The position numbers were made by a program, and so were the translations under genes. From a virus (taxonomy: Duplodnaviria > Caudoviricetes), in IMG/VR virus record IMGVR_UViG_3300045526_000101, positions 1-56,770 of that record: a DNA stretch of 56,770 nucleotides; one strand, 5' to 3'. Below, piece after piece: positions 1 through 56,770 of the stretch; position 1 is the first letter of the stretch, and every line of letters starts with the position of its first letter. The notes under the pieces were generated by a model that made no database searches, was not told where the DNA came from, and saw nothing but the letters and a program-made list of their open reading frames with translations.

Positions 1-235
1 CTCCCGACCTATAATTATTCGACTGATGGAATAATTGTCGGGACAATAGGATAGAGGTGATGGAAGTGAACCTCATCTCTATTTCTTCTAGTAGTTCTGA
101 GAAGGTTTTACCTGACAATAGAGCCTCCATCAATTCTTCCTTAGTGGTAACCTTAGGGTCATCAAAATTGCCCTCCAAACGAGCCTTAATGTGGGCATCA
201 GCGATAGCTTTCGCCTGTTTACTTATGCGCTTCAT
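1..235 (-). CDS. hypothetical early protein, runs off the left window edge
   Basis: ATG at 235, open reading MKRISKQAKAIADAHIKARLEGNF... to position 1 without a stop; follows the 240..428 ORF. Confidence 0.6.
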   Translation of the reverse strand, partial: MKRISKQAKAIADAHIKARLEGNFDDPKVTTKEELMEALLSGKTFSELLEEIEMRFTSITSILLSRQLFHQSNNYRSG

Positions 236-239
236 ATTT

Positions 240-428
240 TTACTTTTTAGGGGTTATTAATCCGGCCTCGATTAGATCAACTGCTGTTCTGCCATAGAAT
301 CCTTGCATTTGCCATACTAGGCCAGTATCTAACAGGAATTGGAATGCATCCAGTACTTCCTGTTCTTCGGGTTCGTATCCGCAGAAGCCTTCAATGATGC
401 TACATGCATCGTAAATTGTCATTTCCAT
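240..428 (-). CDS. small conserved phage hypothetical protein
   Basis: 62 aa; LLDTGLVWQMQGFYGRTA..LIEAG motif recalled from small phage early proteins; AT-rich upstream region. Confidence 0.7.
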   Translation of the reverse strand: MEMTIYDACSIIEGFCGYEPEEQEVLDAFQFLLDTGLVWQMQGFYGRTAVDLIEAGLITPKK

Positions 429-466
429 ATAATCAAGTTTTATAGTTTAAAAATTTTAGTTCGGGG

Positions 467-658
467 TTATTCCCAATCAAGTTGCCTTAAAGACATTTTT
501 CCATTCAGCAAATCAGCTAATTCCGCTTTGGAAACTATAGCCACATTCCATCCATCAGATGTGTCGTGGATTTCAAACTGGTCTTCTGAGACTCTGTATA
601 TCTCTCTAGTAATAAGACCAAATTTCCAGTCTTGCCATGTGTCAATAGCTTGTGTCAT
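467..658 (-). CDS. hypothetical early protein
   Basis: 63-aa ORF in a co-directional array, AT-rich leader. Confidence 0.6.
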   Translation of the reverse strand: MTQAIDTWQDWKFGLITREIYRVSEDQFEIHDTSDGWNVAIVSKAELADLLNGKMSLRQLDWE

Positions 659-674
659 TTGAATTAAATTTTAT

Positions 675-733
675 GGTTAAGACCATCGGGGCATTGCCCC
701 TAGGTTTCTGCCATTAGGCGTCATCAGTTAACC
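675..733 (-). ncRNA. hammerhead ribozyme, type I (variant stem II)
   Basis: Minus strand GGUUAA-CUGAUGA-C-GCC-UAAU-GGC-A-GAAA-CC-UA-GGGGC-AAU-GCCCC-GAU-GGUC^UUAACC: full core, 6-bp stem I, GUC cleavage triplet (cut after 681); atypical C.A at the base of stem II. Confidence 0.75.
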
Positions 734-962
734 TTGCGTTCAATTCCATATCGGCTTCCATAAATAAATCACCGAAGGCATCTGTCACCTCTGTAGGGAG
801 GTATTTTTCTATGTGCCTGTATGAACGTACTAGGGCAAAGAATTCGCCAATAAAACTTTTTATCTCCTCTAGTTCGTTATTGCTTAATCTGTCGGCATAA
901 AACTTTTCTGTAGTTATATGCTCCATGTTTTCATTGTGTTTACCATCTCCGTAAATAGCCAT
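714..962 (-). CDS. hypothetical early protein
   Basis: 82-aa ORF; its last codons and TAA lie inside the type I hammerhead. Confidence 0.6.
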   Translation of the reverse strand: MAIYGDGKHNENMEHITTEKFYADRLSNNELEEIKSFIGEFFALVRSYRHIEKYLPTEVTDAFGDLFMEADMELNARLTDDA

Positions 963-1002
963 AGTATTAAATTTTAATTGTTAAAAAATTTCAGTTCGGG
1001 GG

Positions 1003-1077
1003 TTACATACATAACCCTAAGCACATGGCCGCAAATGCTATCAGCAGCCACATAATATCCTGTTGATTCTTTTTCAT
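1003..1077 (-). CDS. 24-aa hydrophobic peptide
   Basis: MKKNQQDIMWLLIAFAAMCLGLCM*; ATGA overlap with the upstream ORF; below the ORF-track cutoff. Confidence 0.5.
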   Translation of the reverse strand: MKKNQQDIMWLLIAFAAMCLGLCM

Positions 1078-1205
1078 ATTGATTCTATTAAGGTTCGTAA
1101 TGATTTCGCCACAATAGACTGAGGGAAGAATACGTAGGCGATAATTTGCGTCATGTCAAAAAGTGCCACCATAAACAGGAGGCCGATAAGTAATTTTTCT
1201 TTCAT
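1074..1205 (-). CDS. 43-aa membrane peptide
   Basis: MKEKLLIGLLFMVALFDMTQIIAYVFFPQSIVAKSLRTLIESI*; first ORF after the type III hammerhead. Confidence 0.55.
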   Translation of the reverse strand: MKEKLLIGLLFMVALFDMTQIIAYVFFPQSIVAKSLRTLIESI

Positions 1206-1236
1206 TGTAATTAGTGTTTAAGTATCTAAAATAGAG

Positions 1237-1290
1237 ACGTTTCGGCCTGTCCTTTGGCCTCATCAGTAGCGGAGGTTTACCGCTATACGC
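1237..1290 (-). ncRNA. hammerhead ribozyme, type III
   Basis: Minus strand GCGUA^UAGCGG-UAAACCU-CCGCUA-CUGAUGA-GGCC-AAAGGACA-GGCC-GAAACGU: canonical core, 6-bp stem I, 4-bp stem II, 4-bp stem III, GUA triplet (cut after 1286); loop I CCU can pair with loop II AGG. Confidence 0.9.
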
Positions 1291-1483
1291 TTTTCACTTA
1301 TTCGGCAAGTGCGAGGCGATAAATCAGCCTGTCTATTCTCCGATATAGTCTCATTCCTTCCGGCTCTAGAGACCCAACAACCTAACTTGAACATGGTCAA
1401 GGTTTGTCGCCTTCTGAACTACTAACAAAGCTTTGGGATGCCTTGTCGCCTCCGTAGAGGGTGTCGTGGATAAGTCCGTTGAC
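1291..1483 (-). ncRNA. structured 5' leader of the early transcript
   Basis: No ORF; successive hairpins (GGA-CUUA-UCC, CCUC-UACG-GAGG, CUUGA..UCAAG, GUCUC..GAGAC, AGGC..GCCU, CACUU..AAGUG); AGGCGACAA occurs twice. Confidence 0.45.
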
Positions 1484-1487
1484 AGAG

Positions 1488-1520
1488 CAAACATACGAAG
1501 CCTGTCGTAGATGCTCCAAA
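1488..1520 (-). promoter_or_regulatory. Bacteroidota primary-sigma promoter driving the early operon
   Basis: TTTG (1520-1517), 21 nt, TATGTTTG (1495-1488); matches the -33/-7 consensus TTTG/TANNTTTG. Confidence 0.75.
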
Positions 1521-1749
1521 TTTATTTTTGTAACATTGTTGCAAATATGGAATCAGCTAAAACAATTAGCTAGTGTTTATGCAGGTTACAGCCGATAAAA
1601 ATTTTTTTGTGTAGTATTGATGGGCATCTAACGGGTACGGGCAACCGAAAACCATGATGAGTACTGATTAAAAACAATATGTTAAAGAAATGTTAATCCC
1701 AAAAATTGTCCAGTTTGGTCAAGCCAAAACTTGCCAGTTCGGGGGCATA

Positions 1750-2070
1750 CTATAGCCTCTTATGTAGTAAATATCTCCGTATATAGGATAAGTAATCTCT
1801 GCCTCTATAGGTAAGGGAATAGAGAGCATCAGAACCCTCAATTAATCCGTATCGGGTAAGAATAGAAACGTTATTAGCAAGGGATGGATAATTGGCCACC
1901 AGTTCCGCCTTCTTGCAGATATTGAATAGCACAATAGTCTTAACTGGCGAATGGGTGCGGATAAGGAATAATAGGGTCAGTTGTAAGGTGGTGAGCCGTG
2001 GTAATTCCATCCGCTTGGATGCCATCCGAATGGAGGCCGGAAGATATAGCAAGTACTTCTCTATTTTCAT
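1750..2070 (-). CDS. winged-helix (MarR-like) DNA-binding protein
   Basis: LTTLQLTLL...NVSILTRYGLIE....YSLTYRGRDY wHTH pattern. Confidence 0.55.
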   Translation of the reverse strand: MKIEKYLLYLPASIRMASKRMELPRLTTLQLTLLFLIRTHSPVKTIVLFNICKKAELVANYPSLANNVSILTRYGLIEGSDALYSLTYRGRDYLSYIRRYLLHKRL

Positions 2071-2510
2071 GGGTATCTTTTTGTGAGATGGTATTGATAT
2101 GAGGAGGAGAGGGGGTTATTGTAATTGGTCAGACATGCGCCCATGTCGCCCCAGTTTCCCCACAGATGCTCCCAATATTCGGGTGGTGAATCCAGTTTTC
2201 CCCGTTTATCTTCACAACCTTGTCACACATGGTTCTTTTTTTAATCCTAAATAATCCGCTACAATGCACACTGGTATTGGCTTTTATTGTTTCTATGTAC
2301 ATAATAGTGCATTAAATTATGTGCCGATTTATCGATTTTGGAATAGCTAAATTGACCCCTACCCAGTCTTATTTTTGCGATTCGCACTTGCGTTGGTGGG
2401 TGGACATATATATGCATTACCCCACCTTCTCACCCACACATCACCTCCATTTTTCTCACTCTTATTTCTCACGACTTTTTGAATATGGCTGTGAGCTCAT
2501 TAGAGGCGAT

Positions 2511-2804
2511 TTAAGACTCCCTCATCATGGCTAGATACCTTACCTTCATCTGTTCTATTTCCTTGTCTTCATGCATCCAATTGGCGTAATGGTTTGCATC
2601 TTCCCAAGAGAAGAATACGCCAATAGTTTGAAAGCCATGTTCGCCATACCTTTCCACCACCCAGGCTTTCTCTAACCACACGGTCTCGTACCAAGAGTAC
2701 TCTGGTATCCAGCAGAACTTTCTTCTAATCCTAACATCTCCTGGGTTGTAACGTTTCCATTTCATATGTAAGGTTATAGCTTTACTTATTGTCTTATTTG
2801 TCAA
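2511..2804 (-). CDS. hypothetical protein
   Basis: 97-aa ORF (true start may be the internal ATG); RRKFCWIP...VWLE motif. Confidence 0.5.
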   Translation of the reverse strand: MTNKTISKAITLHMKWKRYNPGDVRIRRKFCWIPEYSWYETVWLEKAWVVERYGEHGFQTIGVFFSWEDANHYANWMHEDKEIEQMKVRYLAMMRES

Positions 2805-2950
2805 GGGATACCTTTACCCCTGAGCTGATTTAATATGCAACTTTTAATACCCCCAGAGTTGCTAACTGTGCCGCCCTACGATGCGGAATCCGAGTGAGCA
2901 GATCTTACGGTATGCCCGATTCTCTACGTCCGCCTAGCCTCAGCGGCATC

Positions 2951-3026
2951 TGTAGTCAGGACAGGATCTGCCCCTGTATCTCTCACCTACAATGATGAGG
3001 CGTTTTCTACCTTACGCCACCTGACT
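2951..3026 (-). tRNA. degenerate tRNA-like RNA
   Basis: AGUCAGG/CCUGACU 7-bp acceptor stem, GCGU/ACGC D-arm, CUCA/UGAG arm with 10-nt loop, ACAGG/CCUGU T-arm with non-canonical loop GGCAGAU; ends ACA. Confidence 0.6.
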
Positions 3027-3076
3027 ATATGCCTGTCTTTCCAGGCTGTCTGGATACGGATCAAAAACGGGCGATG

Positions 3077-3084
3077 CAAAGATA
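3077..3084 (-). promoter_or_regulatory. -7 promoter box upstream of the tRNA-like cluster
   Basis: TATCTTTG on the minus strand; no clear -33 box. Confidence 0.45.
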
Positions 3085-3353
3085 AACTCCCAACACTCGA
3101 AAATATTGTGTTACCCACGAACGTGGATAAGTAGAAATATGTTTTAAATAGTTTCTCTATTATTGTCAGACATGGTTCCACCTGCTAGGGAGTCTCCATT
3201 TAAAAGGCTGGCTAGGTTTACTCCAAGGGGAGATGTTTAAGCTGATGGCAGGAGCGACAGGGAAACCTGCTGGTTTATCCAGAGCTGCGTGACGGACGAG
3301 AGGTTGACGGTGCAGTATTTCTTCGCAAAGGCTCTTGCCTTTTAAGCGAAGCT

Positions 3354-3851
3354 TTGTTCAGAACTCAAAAGTTTCAGGTGCAGTATATAGCTAGACAGTA
3401 TAGACCCAAAGCCAAGGAGCAGAGTGACCTACTCTGTAAACTAGAGACAATAAGATTGTTCTCTACACACCCAAAGTATAGAGCTGTGATGGCGGAAGAC
3501 TTTTACCCAGATGATCCAAAGGTTCAGTACAGAGCCGACATGATCTTGACTGAGAATGGCGAACATAAGTATAGTCTGGAGGTGGAGCATAAGTGGATCT
3601 GGGATCAGGAGTTCCCCTGGCCGGATGTACAGTTCCTTCCCAGGAAGAAAGAGAAGTGGGACGATCCGAGGTTTACGTATGGTAAGCCAACCCATTTCAT
3701 TATGTATAATCGAGATGCCTCACGGCATCTGGTCATCTTCGATGACACTATACGAAATCTAGAGAACAGAAGAATGGTCAACTGCCAACAGAGGGGGCTG
3801 GAAGAATTATACTACGTACCGCTAGACCAGGTGCATTTTGACTATCTATGA
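3354..3851 (+). CDS. PD-(D/E)XK-like nuclease / hypothetical protein
   Basis: ADMIL...LEVEHK catalytic-like spacing; start uncertain (GTG 3378 plausible). Confidence 0.45.
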   Translation: MFRTQKFQVQYIARQYRPKAKEQSDLLCKLETIRLFSTHPKYRAVMAEDFYPDDPKVQYRADMILTENGEHKYSLEVEHKWIWDQEFPWPDVQFLPRKKEKWDDPRFTYGKPTHFIMYNRDASRHLVIFDDTIRNLENRRMVNCQQRGLEELYYVPLDQVHFDYL

Positions 3852-4099
3852 AAAAACACACTAAAATTTATTTAAAACATTTTGATTATGGTATCGATGA
3901 TTTTATTCCCTGCGAGGCATGCGGAAGTCGTGCTGTTGACATTCACCATATTGATTGTCGGGGTATGGGTGGCAGCAAAGCTAAAGACGAGATCGAAAAT
4001 CTAATGGCCCTGTGTAGGTCATGCCATATAAAGTATGGCGATAAAAAACAATACATAGAATTTTTAAAATCCAAACATCAATGCAGATTAGAAAAGTAG
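3848..4099 (+). CDS. HNH endonuclease
   Basis: CEACG..DIHHI...NLMALCRSCH. Confidence 0.85.
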   Translation: MKKHTKIYLKHFDYGIDDFIPCEACGSRAVDIHHIDCRGMGGSKAKDEIENLMALCRSCHIKYGDKKQYIEFLKSKHQCRLEK

Positions 4100-4725
4100 A
4101 CTTCCCTGCAAGTCAGTACATCCAGGAGGAGCATCCTAAAAAACAGATCTATCTACACCATACTGCTGGTGGGCCGGACGGGGTAAGAACATTTAGCAGT
4201 TGGGCAAATAACAAAGAAAGAATAGCCACCTGTGTAGCCATATCGGGTAAAGGTCGTGGCTGTAAGGATGGAGAAATCATCCAGGGATTTTCTTCCAAGC
4301 ATTGGGCCTTTCATTTAGGTCTGAAGGAATCCACTTTTCAGAAACATGGCGTTAAGTACAAATCTCTTGATAAGATATCTATTGGTATTGAGATCTGTAA
4401 CTGGGGACACCTGACTGAAAAGGATGGAAAGTTTTATAACTATGTAGGCGGTGTTGTGGAGGATGTGATTAAACTTCCTAAGAGTTACAAGGGGCATCAG
4501 TTTTTTCATAACTATACAGATGCTCAGATAGAGTCAACCAGGGATCTATTGTTACTATGGAAAGAGCGTTATAAGATACCGCTTACCTATAACGAAGATA
4601 TATGGGATATATGCCCCCGAGCTCTCGAGGGTAAGGCTGGCGTCTTTACACATAACAGTGTGCGTACAGACAAGATTGACATCTACCCACATCCCAAGAT
4701 GATTGAGATGTTAAAGAGCCTTTAA
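4081..4725 (+). CDS. endolysin, N-acetylmuramoyl-L-alanine amidase (Amidase_2)
   Basis: IYLHHTAG, SIGIEICNWG, HNSVRTDKID Zn-ligand motifs. Confidence 0.9.
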   Translation: MQIRKVDFPASQYIQEEHPKKQIYLHHTAGGPDGVRTFSSWANNKERIATCVAISGKGRGCKDGEIIQGFSSKHWAFHLGLKESTFQKHGVKYKSLDKISIGIEICNWGHLTEKDGKFYNYVGGVVEDVIKLPKSYKGHQFFHNYTDAQIESTRDLLLLWKERYKIPLTYNEDIWDICPRALEGKAGVFTHNSVRTDKIDIYPHPKMIEMLKSL

Positions 4726-4773
4726 ATCTATTAGTATAAATCAACCTTAATATTATATCAATAATTTAGCAGT

Positions 4774-5430
4774 ATGGTGGCGTTATTAATTATACTTACA
4801 ATCAACTCTGTTTCGACACCAGATGGGTACACAAGAATTAAGACAGACTCATTTGGCGAATACCTCAGAAGCTTATCTCTTAAAAAAGACAATACTGTTT
4901 ATTTATACAATGGTAAGAGGAAGGAGAATCAAGACGCTCAGTATGCAGTTATTGATGTTTCTGTAGGGAATAAAGATCTACAGCAATGTGCAGATGCTGT
5001 AATGAGGCTACGAGCAGAGTGGCTGTTTAAGACTGGTCAATATGAGAGAATAGCATTTAAATCGGTGGCTGGTAAGACAATGGCATTTAAACCCCCATAT
5101 ACATATGATAATTTTATAAAACACATGTACAATGTATTCAGCGTTTGTAACAGTTGGAGTCTTGAAAAGGAGCTGATGCCTAAAAGATTGCAGGACGTCC
5201 AAATAGGGGATGTCCTTATTAAGGGAGGTTTCCCAGGTCATGTGGTCATCGTTGTGGATGTAGCAGTAAATAAAAATGGAGATAAGGCATTTATGTTGGC
5301 CCAATCGTATATGCCAGCTCAAGATATTCATATATTAAAAGGAGAGGAAGGCCCTTGGTACTTTGTTAAAGAAGGGACTATTGATACTCCAGAATATACA
5401 TTCTATTCCAATCAGTTAAAGACTTGGTAG
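4774..5430 (+). CDS. DUF4846-like exported protein
   Basis: N-terminal hydrophobic stretch; DLQQCADAVMRLRAE, GGFPGHVVIVVD, LAQSYMPAQDIH motifs. Confidence 0.75.
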   Translation: MVALLIILTINSVSTPDGYTRIKTDSFGEYLRSLSLKKDNTVYLYNGKRKENQDAQYAVIDVSVGNKDLQQCADAVMRLRAEWLFKTGQYERIAFKSVAGKTMAFKPPYTYDNFIKHMYNVFSVCNSWSLEKELMPKRLQDVQIGDVLIKGGFPGHVVIVVDVAVNKNGDKAFMLAQSYMPAQDIHILKGEEGPWYFVKEGTIDTPEYTFYSNQLKTW

Positions 5431-5487
5431 AAAACTAGGTGGATAAATACTATCTAAAATAGAGAGTTAATCTTTAATTTAGCAGGT

Positions 5488-6036
5488 ATGCAATCACCTA
5501 CGAGAATTATCGTACAAATAGATAAAAAGTTTAACGACACGTCTAAAGGCGGTTTATATATTGACACTACTTACAAACCAGAGTATCATGTAAACATATC
5601 TGGTAAAGTAGTGGCGATTCCCAAACGCCTTCCTAAAGATTTTTCCAGAGAAGGGTACTACGCTACAGTTGAGGTTGGCGATAAGCTATACTTCCACTAC
5701 CTGGTAGTTCTAGATCCTGACTGTCATCTTTTTGACAACTATTATACAGTTGATTATTTCCAAGCCTTGGCTACTGTAAAGCCAGATGGCAAAGTTCTTC
5801 CAGTAGGAGAACATATTTTGATAGAACCTATGGAAGAAGAGATAACACATGATACGTTAGTTATCCCCGACCTGGCCAAAAAGGTGTCTCTAAATAAGGG
5901 TAAGGTATTCTCATCTAACGATCCATCTATTCCTAATGGAGCTATTGTAGGATTTGAGGAGCAGGGGAAGTTTGAGAATGAGATTGAGGGTCATACCCTA
6001 TACGTAATGTACAACAATAATATCCTATACAAATGA
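5488..6036 (+). CDS. GroES-like co-chaperonin (two tandem GroES-like domains)
   Basis: SKGGLYI..GKVVAIP..VEVGDKLYF followed by a second PVGEHILIEP..LVIPD..KGKV unit. Confidence 0.65.
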   Translation: MQSPTRIIVQIDKKFNDTSKGGLYIDTTYKPEYHVNISGKVVAIPKRLPKDFSREGYYATVEVGDKLYFHYLVVLDPDCHLFDNYYTVDYFQALATVKPDGKVLPVGEHILIEPMEEEITHDTLVIPDLAKKVSLNKGKVFSSNDPSIPNGAIVGFEEQGKFENEIEGHTLYVMYNNNILYK

Positions 6037-6383
6037 AACAACTAGACGTTCTAATCCGAAAGTTCTACGCACTTAGCGTAATTGCACACGTTGCACACAT
6101 AAACACCAGAAGCTTTTCTCAGCATGAAGCACTGGGTGAGTTTTATGGTGGAGTAAATGATTTTAAGGATCGCCTTATTGAATACCTGGTAGGTACTGGA
6201 AAGATTAATAAGGTTAATGCCGCAATGTTAGAGACTGGTGGAGATGTAATTAAAGAGGCTGAATCTTTGGCTGAATTATTCTGTGAAGTAGCTGAGTCTA
6301 TTGATGATGAGGCTTTGATTAATATGTCTGGAGAGTTTGAAGAAGCTGTGGGTAAACTTAAATACTTATTCCTATTATCGTGA
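6033..6383 (+). CDS. ferritin/Dps-like four-helix protein (DUF5856-like)
   Basis: HINTRSFSQHEALGEFY...D.LIE...KLKYLFLLS. Confidence 0.65.
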   Translation: MKQLDVLIRKFYALSVIAHVAHINTRSFSQHEALGEFYGGVNDFKDRLIEYLVGTGKINKVNAAMLETGGDVIKEAESLAELFCEVAESIDDEALINMSGEFEEAVGKLKYLFLLS

Positions 6384-6625
6384 AGAAGTCACAAATAAAA
6401 CAAATACGAGAGGTGGCTGCAATGTTGCCTCCCGTATTTGAACAAACGGTATCTGGATTCTACGAAGAGGACAACAAGATTGTTCCGAATGTAGTCGTAC
6501 ATGAAATCAATCATGAAAGGAGATTACGAAAGGCATATGAAAAGCTGGGTATGGAAGGCATACACCAGTATTTAGATATGATCAAAAAACTACAGCAAGA
6601 TAGAAGAGATGCCTTTGAACGGTGA
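6380..6625 (+). CDS. hypothetical protein
   Basis: 81-aa ORF coupled to neighbours. Confidence 0.6.
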   Translation: MKKSQIKQIREVAAMLPPVFEQTVSGFYEEDNKIVPNVVVHEINHERRLRKAYEKLGMEGIHQYLDMIKKLQQDRRDAFER

Positions 6626-6962
6626 TGCTATCGAGTCTTTGTTTGATTATGTGGCGATGTCTAAAGGCTTCACTGTCTCTGCACCTCAATCAAACATGGC
6701 GCAATACGACAGAATTATTGATGTGAACAATAAACTATTTAGAGTTCAGATCAAGGGCAGGAGGGGATTAGACAATCAGGTACTTGTTATCCCAAAAAGA
6801 AAACAAGGCAAAGTTCAGTATGGAGATAACGATTACGATGTACTGGCTGTGTATATAGAGAATAATAATTCCTGGTATTTCTATACAGATAAGAAAAAGG
6901 CATTTAAGATCAACACAAATAAAGAAGCACTAAACAACTGGGACATCTTTGAAACGCTTTAA
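6609..6962 (+). CDS. PD-(D/E)XK endonuclease
   Basis: E..F...YDRIID....RVQIK...YDVLAVY. Confidence 0.75.
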   Translation: MPLNGDAIESLFDYVAMSKGFTVSAPQSNMAQYDRIIDVNNKLFRVQIKGRRGLDNQVLVIPKRKQGKVQYGDNDYDVLAVYIENNNSWYFYTDKKKAFKINTNKEALNNWDIFETL

Positions 6963-7218
6963 AGTCATATACAAGAATCTAAAGAAAGCCTGGGGATATG
7001 CAGACTTAGGCATGAACCATGTAGTAATGGATAAACAACTTCACGGTAAAAAACATCTCGAGATACTGATCCATGAAATGACTCACCTATGTATGCCAGA
7101 CGCTACCGAGGAAGAGGTTGAAAGAATGTCCATATTAATGACCAATACCCTTTGGCAACAAAAGTACCGTAGGGTTGATGACCGTAACATTTTACCACTA
7201 CAAGACGGATCCAAATGA
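6949..7218 (+). CDS. small HEXXH metallopeptidase-like protein
   Basis: WGYA...LIHEMTH...EEEV. Confidence 0.55.
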   Translation: MKRFKVIYKNLKKAWGYADLGMNHVVMDKQLHGKKHLEILIHEMTHLCMPDATEEEVERMSILMTNTLWQQKYRRVDDRNILPLQDGSK

Positions 7219-7448
7219 GTGAAAGATTTAATATACTTCCTATGGTTTATGTCGAAGATGGAGATCTGTACACATCAGAGCTCAGACTTCTTCTATTCCA
7301 GGTAGAAGGCTATGCGCCAACGGCTATTCCATTTAATGACGAAGACGGCATACCAGCTGAGGCTGAAGCTACTAAGGTATTCATGAAGAGTGGATGCGAG
7401 TATGATATATTAATGTCTATTACGGATTTCGATCAACTCTTCAACTAA
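7215..7448 (+). CDS. hypothetical protein
   Basis: 77-aa coupled ORF. Confidence 0.55.
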   Translation: MSERFNILPMVYVEDGDLYTSELRLLLFQVEGYAPTAIPFNDEDGIPAEAEATKVFMKSGCEYDILMSITDFDQLFN

Positions 7449-7494
7449 ATCCACCCCCTGTTTTTCAACGACTTCCCACTGGTACGAAAGAACT

Positions 7495-8106
7495 TTGCAA
7501 GGTAATCTGTACCAAATGATCCCAAACGAAGAGTTCTCTAGAATGGAGTTTAATCCCTTAATTAAGGGTAAGCTTCTGGACAAACATCCAAAGCTAAAGT
7601 CTATTCTAAAAGAAGGTGATGATCGTATGATTAGGTATATCCTTTTGATGTATGATCAGCATTCTCCACTACGTCACCACTACCCAGACTTGTTTAAGAG
7701 AAAGCAGTTTGCTGCAGATCTAGCGGGATATGATCTCGATAAAGAAGATGTCGTATCCGTATATGAGTTTAGGATAAAGGTAGAGGATGGATATGAACCA
7801 TATGAGGAGTTGATTGAGTTGACCATGAAGTATCTGAAATATCAGAACAACATGGTGTGGCAAATGATCGTGAGTAATGAGCAGGCATTCTATGAATACA
7901 ACAGAAGGGTGATGATGCCTGTAGATGGAGCTAAGGATAAAGATATACTCCAGGCGGTAGAAATTAAGACTAAGATAATGGCGGCAATGGACGATATATT
8001 CCAGAGGCTGCAGAAGTATAAAAGAGAATTGACAGGTGGAGATGAAAAGCTAGAGGATGTGGTGGTGAAAAAAAGATTAACCCCAGAAAGTTTAGCTAAG
8101 AGGTAA
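7495..8106 (+). CDS. putative terminase small subunit
   Basis: Directly upstream of and coupled to terL; helical; likely ATG at 7516. Confidence 0.45.
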   Translation: MQGNLYQMIPNEEFSRMEFNPLIKGKLLDKHPKLKSILKEGDDRMIRYILLMYDQHSPLRHHYPDLFKRKQFAADLAGYDLDKEDVVSVYEFRIKVEDGYEPYEELIELTMKYLKYQNNMVWQMIVSNEQAFYEYNRRVMMPVDGAKDKDILQAVEIKTKIMAAMDDIFQRLQKYKRELTGGDEKLEDVVVKKRLTPESLAKR

Positions 8107-10106
8107 TGTATAATAAGGTAGAAAAAGGTACGCTTGAGGTTGTAAGTGGGATTGAGTGTTGGATCCCTCCTGTTGGTTACGGTGTAGATCGTATTACTGG
8201 CGAGTTGGTACGTGTAGGTGTTTATGAGAGAAGTCCTAAAAGGGCTGAACAAAAGTGGGAGAGAATAGATCTGCCAAGAGATTATGAAAAGAAACGAGCT
8301 AAGGAGCAGGCTCGACAAAAAGATGATCCAGAGTTCTTTGACCCCGAACTGGAATCCATTCGTGAGAAACATTGGATGTATAGACGATGTGGATTTTGGT
8401 TCAAAAATAATGGAGTACCAACCTACATAACAGGAACGCACTGGTATTATTTGAACTGGTGTGTAACCAACATAGGTTACATGGAATATAGAAATACAGA
8501 CAGAAAAATATTCTACTGTTTGGCTTCCGTAGAGAATGACCCCCGAGCTGGCGGACTGGTGTATGTATCGAGACGAAGAGGTGGTAAGACGTATATCGCA
8601 GGAGCCTGGTTGTTAGATCGGGTGAGTTTAGGATTAGATAAGATTGGCGGGATACAGAGTAAGACAGATGAGGACGCTAAGGTGGTATTTAATAAAACCA
8701 TAGTAAACTATTTTGTCAACCTTCCTCACTTCTTTAAACCTATTTACGATACATCACAAGGTCTTCGTCCAAAGAAAGAGTTGAGGTTCTTTAAACCAAC
8801 CATCAAAGGTAAAAATGCAGATGACATGCTGCATGGTGATGAGCTAAGAAGTACTATAAACTTCGGATCTAGTGAACCATTTGCTTATGACGGGAATGCT
8901 CTGTATGGATACATACTGGATGAATTTGGTAAGCCACAACGTGCTAATGTTTGGGATACCTGGAACATCGTTCGATACTGTATGGATCAGGATGGTAGAT
9001 GGGTAGGAAAGGCTTTTGTTACATCAACCATTGAAGATATAGATGTAACGGGCCAGGGCCCAAAAGACATATGGATCAACTCAGATCAGGGCAAGCGTGA
9101 TGGTAACGGTAGAACAACTTCTGGATTATATAGACTATTCTTTGGCGCACATGAGTCAACATTCTTTGATGAGTTCGGAAATGAAATGGTTGAAAGAGGT
9201 CTTGAGTATTACAACAACATGCGTAAGGCATATGCACATGATACTCGCCAATTAAGTTCAATCATCAGAAAGAATCCGTTTACAATCGAAGAGGCTTTCA
9301 GAGTAGATGGCGACAAGTGTTTGTATGATGCCATGAAGTTGAATGAGAGGCTGGATCGATTAACCTGGAAGGAGAATCTAACAACAAGAGGAAACTTTGT
9401 ATGGGAGGGTGGCGTAAGAGATTCCAGAATAGTGTGGGAACCAGCAGATAATGGTAAGTGGGAGGTTGCTACCATGTTTGATAAAACGGAAGAAACAAAT
9501 AAAGTTAGCAAACGTGGAGATCTGTTCTACCCAAACAACACCAGGTTTGTGATGGGAGTTGACCCGATAGATCATAACACTACTGAAGATGGTAGAAGAT
9601 CTAACGGTGCAGCACTGGTACTACAGAAGTATAGTCCATTAGATAGCAGTCCTTATAATAACGCCTTCATCTGTAAGTACAAACACAGACCAGATTCAGT
9701 AGCAGTATTCTATGAGGATATGATAAAAATGGCGGTGTTCTATGGGTGTAGTGTTTTGTTTGAGAATAACAAAATTGGATTGCTCAGGTATTTTGAAGAT
9801 CGGGGGTATGGTAACTTTTTAATATGGCTACCAGATAGACAACAACCTGGTATTGCCGCTTCACCAAAGACACATCAATACATCGCTGAGTTGACAGAGA
9901 CGTATATAAACGATAATCACGAACGAGTATTTTTTAAAGACTTGATTCAAGAGTGGTTGGAGTTTGACTTAAATAACACAACAAAATATGACGTTGCGAT
10001 GAGTGCTGGATACACACTGATTGCAGATCAATATAAGGTAGTAAAGAAAGAAAAGGAAGTAGTGACAGATATAGGCGGATTCTTTAAGACATATAAGGTA
10101 GGATAA
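8106..10106 (+). CDS. terL: terminase large subunit
   Basis: Walker A-like SRRRGGKT, Walker B YILDEFGK, RNase H-like GVDPIDH and YD..MSAG. Confidence 0.9.
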   Translation: MYNKVEKGTLEVVSGIECWIPPVGYGVDRITGELVRVGVYERSPKRAEQKWERIDLPRDYEKKRAKEQARQKDDPEFFDPELESIREKHWMYRRCGFWFKNNGVPTYITGTHWYYLNWCVTNIGYMEYRNTDRKIFYCLASVENDPRAGGLVYVSRRRGGKTYIAGAWLLDRVSLGLDKIGGIQSKTDEDAKVVFNKTIVNYFVNLPHFFKPIYDTSQGLRPKKELRFFKPTIKGKNADDMLHGDELRSTINFGSSEPFAYDGNALYGYILDEFGKPQRANVWDTWNIVRYCMDQDGRWVGKAFVTSTIEDIDVTGQGPKDIWINSDQGKRDGNGRTTSGLYRLFFGAHESTFFDEFGNEMVERGLEYYNNMRKAYAHDTRQLSSIIRKNPFTIEEAFRVDGDKCLYDAMKLNERLDRLTWKENLTTRGNFVWEGGVRDSRIVWEPADNGKWEVATMFDKTEETNKVSKRGDLFYPNNTRFVMGVDPIDHNTTEDGRRSNGAALVLQKYSPLDSSPYNNAFICKYKHRPDSVAVFYEDMIKMAVFYGCSVLFENNKIGLLRYFEDRGYGNFLIWLPDRQQPGIAASPKTHQYIAELTETYINDNHERVFFKDLIQEWLEFDLNNTTKYDVAMSAGYTLIADQYKVVKKEKEVVTDIGGFFKTYKVG

Positions 10107-30551: not shown

Positions 30552-30742
30552 TGACAGAGAAACAAGCAATGGGACTGGTGTACTATAATCTAGGAGATGT
30601 GGTATTGGTTGAGCGTGATGGTCAGCGAAATGTTTTCAGTTCGGGGGCAGGATTTATGGTCGCCATATTAGACGGAGATAATAGCTCAGTAAGCCCAGTA
30701 TTTCAAACCCTACAAGAAGCACAAGCATGGTCGCAACAATAA
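30548..30742 (+). CDS. small hypothetical protein
   Basis: 64-aa ORF coupled on both sides. Confidence 0.5.
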   Translation: MMTEKQAMGLVYYNLGDVVLVERDGQRNVFSSGAGFMVAILDGDNSSVSPVFQTLQEAQAWSQQ

Positions 30743-53310: not shown

Positions 53311-53332
53311 AAAAAGCCCCCAGTTCGGGGGC
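53311..53332 (-). terminator. intrinsic terminator after the integrase
   Basis: GCCCCC-GAACT-GGGGGC-TTTTT on the minus strand. Confidence 0.7.
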
Positions 53333-53338
53333 CGTCTT

Positions 53339-54643
53339 TTATTCGCCAAGAAACTGTTTATAATAACTCGTAACCTCAGACTTGAAGTGCCGTTCTACAA
53401 AGGCGACATATCGTTCAAAGGCTACGCTATTGGAAGCATGACCACTACAGAACTTGATGTGTCTCTCAGGTACTTTATAGTAGATCATAGTAGTGATAGC
53501 GGTTTTCCTTAACATGTGCGGATGAACGTGTTGATACATGGGTTTGGTTTCGATAACCTCTTCCCCACGAACTCCGATAGTTTTGACCGTTGTTGGATTA
53601 TGCATCTCAGGATACAGGCTAAATAGATCCGCCATGTTATTGTATATGGTAGCGTAGCGATTGTCTTTTAGCGTGTAGATTCTCCCGAACTGAGCCAGGT
53701 TACGATCAAATACCTTCGCCAAAAACTTAGGCAGAGGAACATCTGTGTATTCCCTGGTCTTTCCATTCATCTTAGACATGAACATATCGTTCTTGACGAT
53801 CCGAATATCGCTAACTGATAGATCGATGGCGTCCCTTACCCTCATTGTAGTCACCAGCATCACCGAACAGACTTCCCATACATATTTTAGCAGCTCGGGG
53901 AGGTTATTATAGGTCTTTTCATCCGTCAGAAATCGCTGTACAAACTCAGGTTCTAATACGACTACTGGATTAGGATCAGCCTGGTAAAGTTTAATCTTTG
54001 GCGGCTGAAGATATAGATGTTCCTTCCAATAGTTCAGCATCACAGATACATTTAGAATGTAATTTGCCCTGGTTGCCATGCTATAGTTCATATCGATCAT
54101 CCATTCGTCCCATCCTGTGAAGTAACTATCCCATTTGTCGGTGATAAGCCGCTTCCGTTGGATAGTATCCTTTGGACTGATAGACATCTCTAACAAATCC
54201 AGGTTTCCTGCGATCTCACTATACTCATATAAGGATTCTATTGAATATTTATAGGCACTGATCGTTCCAGGTTTAAGTTGTCTATTCCCCCTCGACTTGA
54301 TCTCACCCTTGATTGCTTTTTTTAAATATTCCCGACACAGATAAGCCAGTTCGTAGGATTCTTTAGGCTCTTCCTGTATGTCGGTATAGCATGGGTTGAA
54401 ACTAGCCTTGATCTTTTTTAAATCGCCTTTATAGGTCACGTATAGATCTGTCAGGCGTACTCTGTTTCTATTGAGATCGTTATTCATGGCCATGACTTCG
54501 GGGGAATTGCCGACAAATTTTCCCTTGTCAAACTTCATACTCTTCGGGATCTTGATGCCTGTACTCAGCCGGAGGGAAACTGTTTTACCATCCGTTAACC
54601 GGGCCTGGATCGTGTTACCTCTTGCATTAAATGAAACTGTCAT
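53339..54643 (-). CDS. int: tyrosine recombinase / integrase
   Basis: Catalytic R (TTMRVRD), K (KT), HMLR, GH, Y (FERY); N-terminal LSTGIKI arm-binding segment of Bacteroidota integrases. Confidence 0.9.
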   Translation of the reverse strand: MTVSFNARGNTIQARLTDGKTVSLRLSTGIKIPKSMKFDKGKFVGNSPEVMAMNNDLNRNRVRLTDLYVTYKGDLKKIKASFNPCYTDIQEEPKESYELAYLCREYLKKAIKGEIKSRGNRQLKPGTISAYKYSIESLYEYSEIAGNLDLLEMSISPKDTIQRKRLITDKWDSYFTGWDEWMIDMNYSMATRANYILNVSVMLNYWKEHLYLQPPKIKLYQADPNPVVVLEPEFVQRFLTDEKTYNNLPELLKYVWEVCSVMLVTTMRVRDAIDLSVSDIRIVKNDMFMSKMNGKTREYTDVPLPKFLAKVFDRNLAQFGRIYTLKDNRYATIYNNMADLFSLYPEMHNPTTVKTIGVRGEEVIETKPMYQHVHPHMLRKTAITTMIYYKVPERHIKFCSGHASNSVAFERYVAFVERHFKSEVTSYYKQFLGE

Positions 54644-55914: not shown

Positions 55915-55940
55915 AACTGGCAGACCGAAATCTGCCAGTT
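55915..55940 (-). terminator. strong hairpin / possible terminator
   Basis: AACTGGCAGA-(6 nt)-TCTGCCAGTT 10-bp perfect stem, followed on the minus strand by TAAACTTTT. Confidence 0.5.
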
Positions 55941-56061
55941 CGGGGGCTATCTCGTTGCCAACGCCTCTGTATAGCTTATCTCCAATGAAAGCACTACCAC
56001 ACAACCTGAAGATCATCAGCCATACTATGTCTATCCCAACCCCGAGGCCAGGGTGCAAGGG

Positions 56062-56702: not shown

Positions 56703-56770
56703 TCTTCGTTTAATGCTCCTATGTCAATTAAATACCGGGCATAAGCCTCTTCCATTACTTCTGCGAATGG

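Follow-up and report, generated by a model that had tools for sequence, protein, structure and literature searches.

What does a self-cleaving RNA do just ahead of the genes of a phage? The question is raised by positions 1237-1290 of IMG/VR record IMGVR_UViG_3300045526_000101, which we analysed computationally over its whole length of 56,770 bases (called the window below). The hammerhead ribozyme found there, the leader RNA beside it and the first open reading frame (ORF) behind it are all read on the minus strand. We consider it highly probable that this is a functional type III hammerhead in the transcript of a leftward operon, where it cuts a structured leader off the messenger RNA (mRNA). 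The hammerhead is genuine, under selection and of a known kind, and its context is more interesting than the ribozyme itself.

A preliminary description of this DNA, made from the letters alone, had named the element a canonical type III hammerhead and reported all the core nucleotides, CUGAUGA, GAAA and GUA. The sequence bears out both statements, with a complete core and three helices, and covariation among related phages (below) adds to the first. Its coordinates, including a new 5′ end at 1285 and a distance of 80 nucleotides (nt) from there to an ATG at 1205, are arithmetically correct. The hammerhead is made up of the following parts.

1290..1237, minus strand: type III hammerhead ribozyme with all core nucleotides and three helices (matched over 1234-1293 by Rfam and by our own model)
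1290-1287 with 1240-1237, minus strand: stem III, four pairs, including A15.1-U16.1 and one G-U
1288-1286, minus strand: cleavage triplet GUA (NUH), read from the sequence
between A1286 and U1285, minus strand: predicted cleavage site, from hammerhead numbering applied to the sequence
1285-1280 with 1272-1267, minus strand: stem I, 6 base pairs (bp)
1279-1273, minus strand: loop I, 7 nt, with CCU (1275-1273) as the proposed partner of loop II
1266-1260, minus strand: core CUGAUGA, read from the sequence
1259-1256 with 1247-1244, minus strand: stem II, 4 bp
1255-1248, minus strand: loop II, 8 nt against 5 nt in most relatives, with AGG (1253-1251) as the proposed partner of loop I
1243-1241, minus strand: GAA, followed by A15.1 at 1240, which pairs with U1287; together they form the GAAA block

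The window copy thus has the conserved core with its A15.1-U16.1 pair, an NUH triplet, stems I and II closed by loops and an open stem III, the features by which the class is recognised. A covariance-model search matched Rfam family RF00008 over its full length (model positions 1-54) at 36.1 bits, with expectation values (E) of 2.7e-6 when 401 nt were searched, 9.0e-8 for RF00008 alone and 3.8e-4 for the window against all 4227 families. It was the sole Rfam match at E ≤ 1 across the whole window, and the hammerhead fold is the minimum-free-energy structure of the isolated 64-nt piece.

To place the element among its relatives, 80 related loci, labelled here with L-numbers, were retrieved via the terminase gene for comparison, 18 of them at 45% terminase identity or above and 62 at 35-37%. 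Twelve of the 18 closer loci carry a type III hammerhead, always on the same strand and 6.1-9.0 kb upstream of the terminase gene. Our own covariance model (R1) was built on a seed of eight copies that included the window, which scores 59.3 bits with it; copies outside the seed, in L122, L131 and L141, matched at 53, 38 and 38 bits, L122 having been left out because MAFFT shifted its hammerhead by two columns. A thirteenth contig showed its hammerhead as L210, the L136 locus of the same contig having too short a flank. The 62 loci at 35-37% identity gave no own-model match below E 0.069, and none of the eight loci found via an 82-residue downstream ORF, all matching only its first 15-48 residues, carried a hammerhead.

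Across 11 distinct copies, the predicted pairs hold in 93.1% of alignment cells (100% in stems I and II), and 11 of the 16 pairs have changed on both sides, with compensatory substitutions in all three stems. None of 500 shuffles reached the observed pairing or covariation score, and slid 3′ partners paired in 29-42%. The core is invariant in 22 clade copies apart from the variable position 7, while position 17 is C, A or U. Three copies (L131:2392-2453, L141:1059-1119 and L210:8002-8063) share one additional U between A9 and G10.1 together with a 5-bp stem II, and score about 38 bits with the clade model. On this comparative evidence, the hammerhead is under selection in the clade. Ribozymes of this clade lie under the Rfam threshold and are hence missed by routine annotation.

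The position of the hammerhead relative to genes is conserved as well. Downstream of the window copy lie a linker and a short ORF.

1206..1236, minus strand: A/U-rich untranslated linker between ribozyme and start codon
1074..1205, minus strand: first ORF after the ribozyme, 43 amino acids, hydrophobic, conserved in L122 at 3298-3429

The 43-residue product has no family match. An ATG-started ORF of at least 30 codons begins 4-28 nt past the 3′ end of the hammerhead in 19 of 22 copies, and within 4-12 nt in 18 of the 22, whereas such a start lies within 30 nt of only 11.9% of random same-strand positions (n = 1100). The first genes after the hammerheads are non-homologous between copies, and the link is therefore to start codons generally rather than to one gene.

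The record is classed as linear and about 82% complete. Its genes for a terminase, a portal protein, a primase/helicase, a RecE-like exonuclease and an integrase (53339-54643) identify the source as a temperate tailed phage. We rejected a simple circular permutation of the record, as the ORF cut at position 1 is not continued at 56770. Terminase relatives among cultured phages (112 records, about 31% identity) point, wherever a host or organism is named, to Bacteroidota alone, with Flavobacterium (68) and Cellulophaga (15) followed by Tenacibaculum, Maribacter and Azobacteroides; a member of the Bacteroidota is likely to be the host. A search of prokaryote genomes with the terminase found no relative, and no host genome or prophage copy; window positions 1-8000 had no DNA match in a phage collection. 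The sequencing runs listed near the window are all labelled as freshwater or lake-water metagenomes.

Upstream of the hammerhead, the window contains two promoter-like elements.

1517..1520, minus strand: promoter-like -33 element TTTG, part of TTTG-N21-TATGTTTG
1488..1495, minus strand: promoter-like -7 element TATGTTTG, with a predicted transcription start near 1483

Eight of 11 clade copies have the motif TTTG-N21-TATGTTTG at a distance of 194-410 nt upstream from the hammerhead, with identical spacing over five different spacer sequences. It matches the Bacteroidetes consensus, which is given in PMC6847099 as TTTG/TANNTTTG for the -33 and -7 elements, with the final G at -5; this promoter type is also treated in PMC9723704. 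With the final G at -5, the start falls at about 1483 and the 5′ cleavage product would be 198 nt long. The block 1461-1499 is 89.7% identical to L122, unlike the flanking leader. A scan of 900-2200 for sigma-70 promoters and terminators gave no more sites than shuffled sequence, which is expected since the host promoter type differs. The head of an operon and the leader of about 200 nt in the preliminary description fit this conserved promoter-like motif, and it is this motif that would place the hammerhead at the operon head; the small ORFs and the replication genes on the minus strand suggest that the operon may be early. Just upstream of the -33 element lies an imperfect inverted repeat (1528-1544, 8-nt arms with one mismatch), which has a perfect counterpart in L141. 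The ORF at 1750-2070 has weak winged-helix matches, under Pfam cut-offs, and the repeat may be operator-like and bound by this upstream winged-helix-like protein.

Between the predicted start and the ribozyme, the leader falls into a variable and a conserved part.

1411..1483, minus strand: variable 5′ part of the predicted leader, conserved in its first ~22 nt only; includes segment 1418-1431, which can pair with the ribozyme core
1295..1410, minus strand: conserved structured leader element, ~110 nt, five helices, adjoining the ribozyme on its 5′ side
1410-1406/1381-1377, minus strand: leader helix P1
1401-1397/1390-1386, minus strand: leader helix P2
1373-1369/1352-1348, with tip 1363-1362/1357-1356, minus strand: leader helix P3
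1343-1340/1305-1302, minus strand: leader helix P5
1330-1327/1317-1314, minus strand: leader helix P4
1300-1295, minus strand: conserved tail of the leader, from sequence comparison

RNAalifold predicted helices P1-P4 unaided. In an unfitted MAFFT alignment of 10 copies, the five-helix model pairs in 92.1% of cells and 15 of its 27 pairs have changed on both sides; none of 500 shuffles reached these values, and slid partners paired in 32-41%. In a model-fitted alignment of 22 distinct copies, pairing rose to 94.5% of cells. Conserved G-U pairs in P1 fit the gene (minus) strand only, and invariant unpaired nucleotides stand within the covarying helices. A signature pattern of the leader was found in 10 viral, 25 metagenome and 3 genome stretches, from which the covariance model confirmed 32 copies (22 distinct) and none of the three genome matches (Meiothermus, Bacteroidaceae and Anaplasma records). 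The element has no match among the 4227 families of Rfam release 15; positions 1100-1500 searched at E ≤ 10 gave, besides the hammerhead, just four implausible eukaryotic or archaeal families, and cultured phage records had no DNA match to 1234-1425 at E ≤ 1. By its pattern of substitution, the leader is a conserved structured RNA, previously undescribed, and not a mere spacer.

At its 3′ end the leader is consistently marked, by a hammerhead site or, in the hammerhead-free copies that were examined, by a hairpin. Among the 22 distinct copies, a type III hammerhead abuts the leader in 16, and three others have a type I substrate strand within about 10 nt of it, with the enzyme strands beyond the next ORF. 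The remaining three lack a hammerhead, and no other ribozyme class was found alongside such copies. Two of the hammerhead-free leaders were examined (L236:1030-1100 and L221:2640-2690, minus strand): they share a hairpin with a 6-bp GC-rich stem, to which L236 adds an outer stem of 8 bp, then a U-rich run and, some 35-45 nt further on, the start of an ORF. To judge from its sequence, this hairpin looks like a terminator or attenuator. Conversely, the hammerheads of L122, L127 and L128/L132 are joined to unrelated leaders; the leaders at L128:2084-2400 and L132:3682-4000 (minus strand) are a second, unrelated type, conserved between these two with 77.7% identity over 385 nt.

The preliminary description had also predicted contact between loops I and II, and CCU (1275-1273) is indeed complementary to AGG (1253-1251). 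According to PMC3088659, about 40% of representatives have pseudoknots between these loops, and each of the three hammerhead types is among them; such pseudoknots are needed for fast cleavage at 0.5 mM Mg2+, as shown there by mutation and rescue, and in type III they accompany a stem I that exceeds stem II by 2 bp. Stems I and II of the window copy, at 6 and 4 bp, have this geometry. Among viral type III hammerheads (21 unique loop pairs), a copy's own loops have a mean Watson-Crick run of 2.57 against 2.25 for swapped loops, and the observed complementarity was reached by 218-323 of 5000 swap permutations and 8-167 of 5000 within-loop shuffles. An in-register test on 21 distinct clade copies found three loop pairs holding in 86.7% of cells, compared with 78.1% when shuffled (1 of 500 shuffles reached the observed value) and 16-40% when slid; five cells have changed on both sides, with G-C/A-U and U-A/C-G exchanges. 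A three-pair loop contact in the hammerhead family is thus likely. Loop II of the window is 3 nt longer than that of most relatives, however, so that CCU:AGG falls off the clade register and is not itself covered by the covariation, and a 3-bp Watson-Crick match also arises in 29% of 402 mismatched loop combinations. The predicted contact is therefore backed by stem geometry and by a covarying contact in the clade, but not in its exact register, and for the window copy CCU:AGG is plausible.

These results suggest the following mechanism. Transcription would begin at the conserved promoter near 1483, and the first ~198 nt, including the ~110-nt structured RNA, would stay untranslated, with the ribozyme directly next and the first ORF 28 nt after it. 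The nascent ribozyme would fold, probably aided by the loop I/loop II contact, and cut its own backbone between A1286 and U1285. Hammerhead cleavage leaves a 2′,3′-cyclic phosphate on the 5′ product and a 5′-OH on the 3′ product. The structured leader would accordingly be freed as a discrete RNA with a 2′,3′-cyclic phosphate end, and since the 4-bp stem III is its sole hold after cleavage, it should dissociate. The mRNA would keep a 5′-OH and a fixed 5′ untranslated region (UTR) consisting of the ribozyme body and a short unstructured A-rich linker; the 3′ strand of stem III would be freed and the start codon insulated from leader structure. Initiation in Bacteroidetes is described in PMC6847099 as lacking Shine-Dalgarno pairing and as tuned by structure near the start codon. 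What the sequences show is the motif, its conservation and covariation, its fixed place between leader element and start codon, and the promoter-like motif; that the RNA is cut in the cell, what becomes of the two products and what they do, and when the operon is transcribed are inferences. The arrangement predicts a ribozyme that matures a discrete leader RNA and gives the mRNA a standard, unobstructed 5′ end, and the clade offers a clean, testable series of promoter, structured leader RNA, one ribozyme and a start codon about ten nucleotides on, in which natural variants exchange the ribozyme for a terminator-like hairpin or one leader for another.

Several observations weigh against this mechanism. 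The RF00008 score lies below the gathering score of 48.5 bits, which is a database threshold and not a property of the RNA; the covariance-model check proposed in the preliminary description thus gave an end-to-end match with a good window-wide E, but a score under that threshold, and a scan of six relatives' loci at the gathering threshold returned zero RF00008 matches. Stem III is short, with four pairs, and the folding energy of the 64-nt piece is unremarkable (z = -1.47; 15 of 200 shuffles equally stable). The alignment behind the hammerhead covariation was fitted to the model, and 8 of its 11 copies were picked by a descriptor demanding at least three pairs per stem, both of which favour structure. 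L123, L129 and L137 cover the upstream region, yet have no hammerhead or other Rfam ribozyme, so the element is dispensable in the clade. The 28-nt gap between ribozyme and ATG in the window is the upper limit of the range. As for the promoter, the -7 box of the window has a G at -9, which PMC6847099 describes as almost absent from Flavobacterium johnsoniae promoters; the motif is absent from L128 and L130, and L141 has a differently spaced variant only. Same-strand ORFs upstream, at 1750-2070 and 2511-2804, are a further caveat to the promoter reading. Finally, the minimum-free-energy fold of the 278-nt leader plus ribozyme is without the hammerhead, 1431-1418 pairing there with 1270-1257, which comprises the 3′ strand of stem I and the core.

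This last fold is the starting point of a reading in which the ribozyme is regulated: the leader would sense a ligand, a protein or folding kinetics and switch between the hammerhead and the core-sequestering fold, and hence control cleavage and translation of the first gene. The sequestering helix has 14 contiguous pairs (five of them G-U) and encloses the leader element, and a run of that length arose in none of 200 shuffles of the upstream 100 nt, although the energy of the duplex was matched by 39 of 200. The leader looks ligand- or protein-binding, given its invariant unpaired nucleotides in covarying helices, and the terminator-like hairpin that follows it in two hammerhead-free copies is attenuator-like. 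However, the helix is not conserved. Among 16 copies, comparable runs adjoin the leader in just L130 (10 bp; 15 of 200 shuffles) and L131 (9 bp; 58 of 200), where they pair with different parts of the ribozyme, and the other 13 are at chance level. The hammerheads of L122, L127, L128 and L132, moreover, keep their relation to the start codon behind quite different leaders, and we know of no natural allosteric hammerhead. We regard such regulation as unlikely.

The nearest relative, L122 (99% terminase identity), bears on another explanation, namely that the hammerhead marks the boundary of a mobile or exchangeable cassette and serves cassette spread, RNA circularisation or splicing instead of operon expression. 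Window positions 1236-1460 (225 nt) are cleanly replaced in L122 by 3460-4119 (660 nt), which hold a different leader and hammerhead and an extra 67-residue ORF. The flanks of the exchange are 89.7% and 94.7% identical, homology resuming over 992-1235 at the latter value, and in the window the homology breaks off at the 3′ end of the ribozyme. Several unrelated leader types are joined to related hammerheads, and L222 and L208 have hammerhead series flanking small genes. Leader and ribozyme have been swapped as one unit, which also counts in favour of the main reading. Phage genomes commonly trade small modules in mosaic fashion, and this cassette has been seen so far at a single syntenic site. 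The window cassette contains no integrase, reverse transcriptase, homing endonuclease or second ribozyme, and from a single hammerhead no unit-length RNA could be excised. For hammerhead clusters in prophages, PMC3088659 reports a search for spliced or circular products that detected none. Such a role is very improbable. A chance or decayed, inactive motif, which the sub-threshold Rfam score, the ordinary folding energy and the short stem III would allow, is hardly credible given the window-wide E of 3.8e-4, the intact state of every core nucleotide, the broadly syntenic position, which the motif has kept although its sequence changed extensively and each of the three stems acquired compensatory substitutions, and the fixed relation to start codons.

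The hammerhead of the window resembles known systems to different degrees. Type III hammerheads of bacteria and prophages, with loop pseudoknots and flanking genes, were described by Perreault et al. 2011 (PMC3088659), where hundreds of bacterial and prophage hammerheads are counted and their role is called unproven. With those described there the window copy shares the core, the three-helix topology open at stem III, the NUH site, a stem I exceeding stem II by 2 bp and a place just before genes in a temperate phage; several copies flank single small genes in L222. Unlike them as described, the clade copies adjoin a specific leader RNA and leave 4-12 nt to the start codon, or 28 nt in the case of the window. 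RiboJ, an engineered insulator from a plant satellite RNA hammerhead, leaves a constant 5′ UTR. Like RiboJ, the window hammerhead stands between promoter-proximal RNA and the start region and would cut away the variable RNA upstream, so that the ribozyme body forms a constant 5′ UTR; unlike it, the window hammerhead would be a natural insulator, in hosts whose phylum lacks Shine-Dalgarno pairing. Discontinuous (split) hammerheads occur in mammalian Clec2 3′ UTRs. In a similar way, a gene-spanning hammerhead could form in L208 from the substrate strand beside the leader and an enzyme strand on the far side of the next ORF, whereas the window hammerhead is contiguous.

Two arrangements in relatives were noted in passing. 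In L208:7849-8445 (also in L225, L224, L234 and L237), the substrate strand after the leader is followed downstream by two complete type I hammerheads (in L208 at ~8205-8290 and 8389-8445). Since these have the same stem I strands, either side of an ORF could supply the substrate strand for an enzyme strand, and a split hammerhead spanning a gene is possible. L222:4864-5594 (minus strand) contains three type III hammerheads in series, about 320-350 nt apart and scoring 50-51 bits each; the first abuts the leader element, and after every one of them a small ORF starts within 5-11 nt.

The leader itself can be compared with other phage RNAs. The P1/P7 c4 and P4 CI RNAs (Rfam family C4) are leader RNAs at operon heads that are matured by host RNases and pair within the same transcript. 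The leader of the window is likewise a structured RNA at the head of a phage operon and would be cut from a transcript carrying downstream genes, but by a ribozyme rather than by host RNases. We rejected it as a C4-type or cis-antisense RNA, since it has no Rfam match and, in 22 copies, its unpaired segments have no conserved complementary sites within 500 nt upstream or 900 nt downstream. VIPR vrRNAs are presented in bioRxiv 10.64898/2026.04.26.720920 as phage guide RNAs from hammerhead-interspersed arrays, defined by 9-16 tandem YNNGG repeats with a conserved tail behind them. Like a vrRNA so described, the leader is a structured small phage RNA of about 100 nt with one end set by an adjoining hammerhead. 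As a vrRNA it was also rejected: GGY occurs at four scattered positions in 110 nt with no 5-nt periodicity, and a five-helix fold takes the place of the repeats. The proteins scanned beside the site gave no Vipr match, in a scan not aimed specifically at Vipr. We tentatively propose, at somewhat less than even confidence, that the leader at 1410..1295 is a new class of regulatory RNA of freshwater phages that probably infect Bacteroidota, that it is made at the operon head, that its 3′ end is set by a type III hammerhead in most copies, by a split or type I site in some and by an intrinsic terminator in others, and that it acts on its own once released, for example as an immunity factor, as an antitermination RNA that binds RNA polymerase or another protein, or as a sensor. 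If so, the cut that releases the leader would at the same time expose the first gene's start region, giving phage hammerheads a defined job.

Two further observations concern the window and a relative. The motif CAGTTCGGGGG occurs 17 times in the window at no more than one mismatch, against 0.5 expected, and none of 100 shuffles reached 17; the sites include 992-1002, 1735-1745, 30637-30647, 53321-53331 and 55936-55946. Two of them, within short GC-rich hairpins, come directly after the stop codons of the 43-residue ORF and of a 106-residue minus-strand ORF, and the copies may be terminators or a protein-binding repeat. The hammerhead of L127 is followed about 3 kb further on, on the same strand, by a transfer RNA gene (L127:140-209, minus strand; Rfam tRNA, 52 bits).

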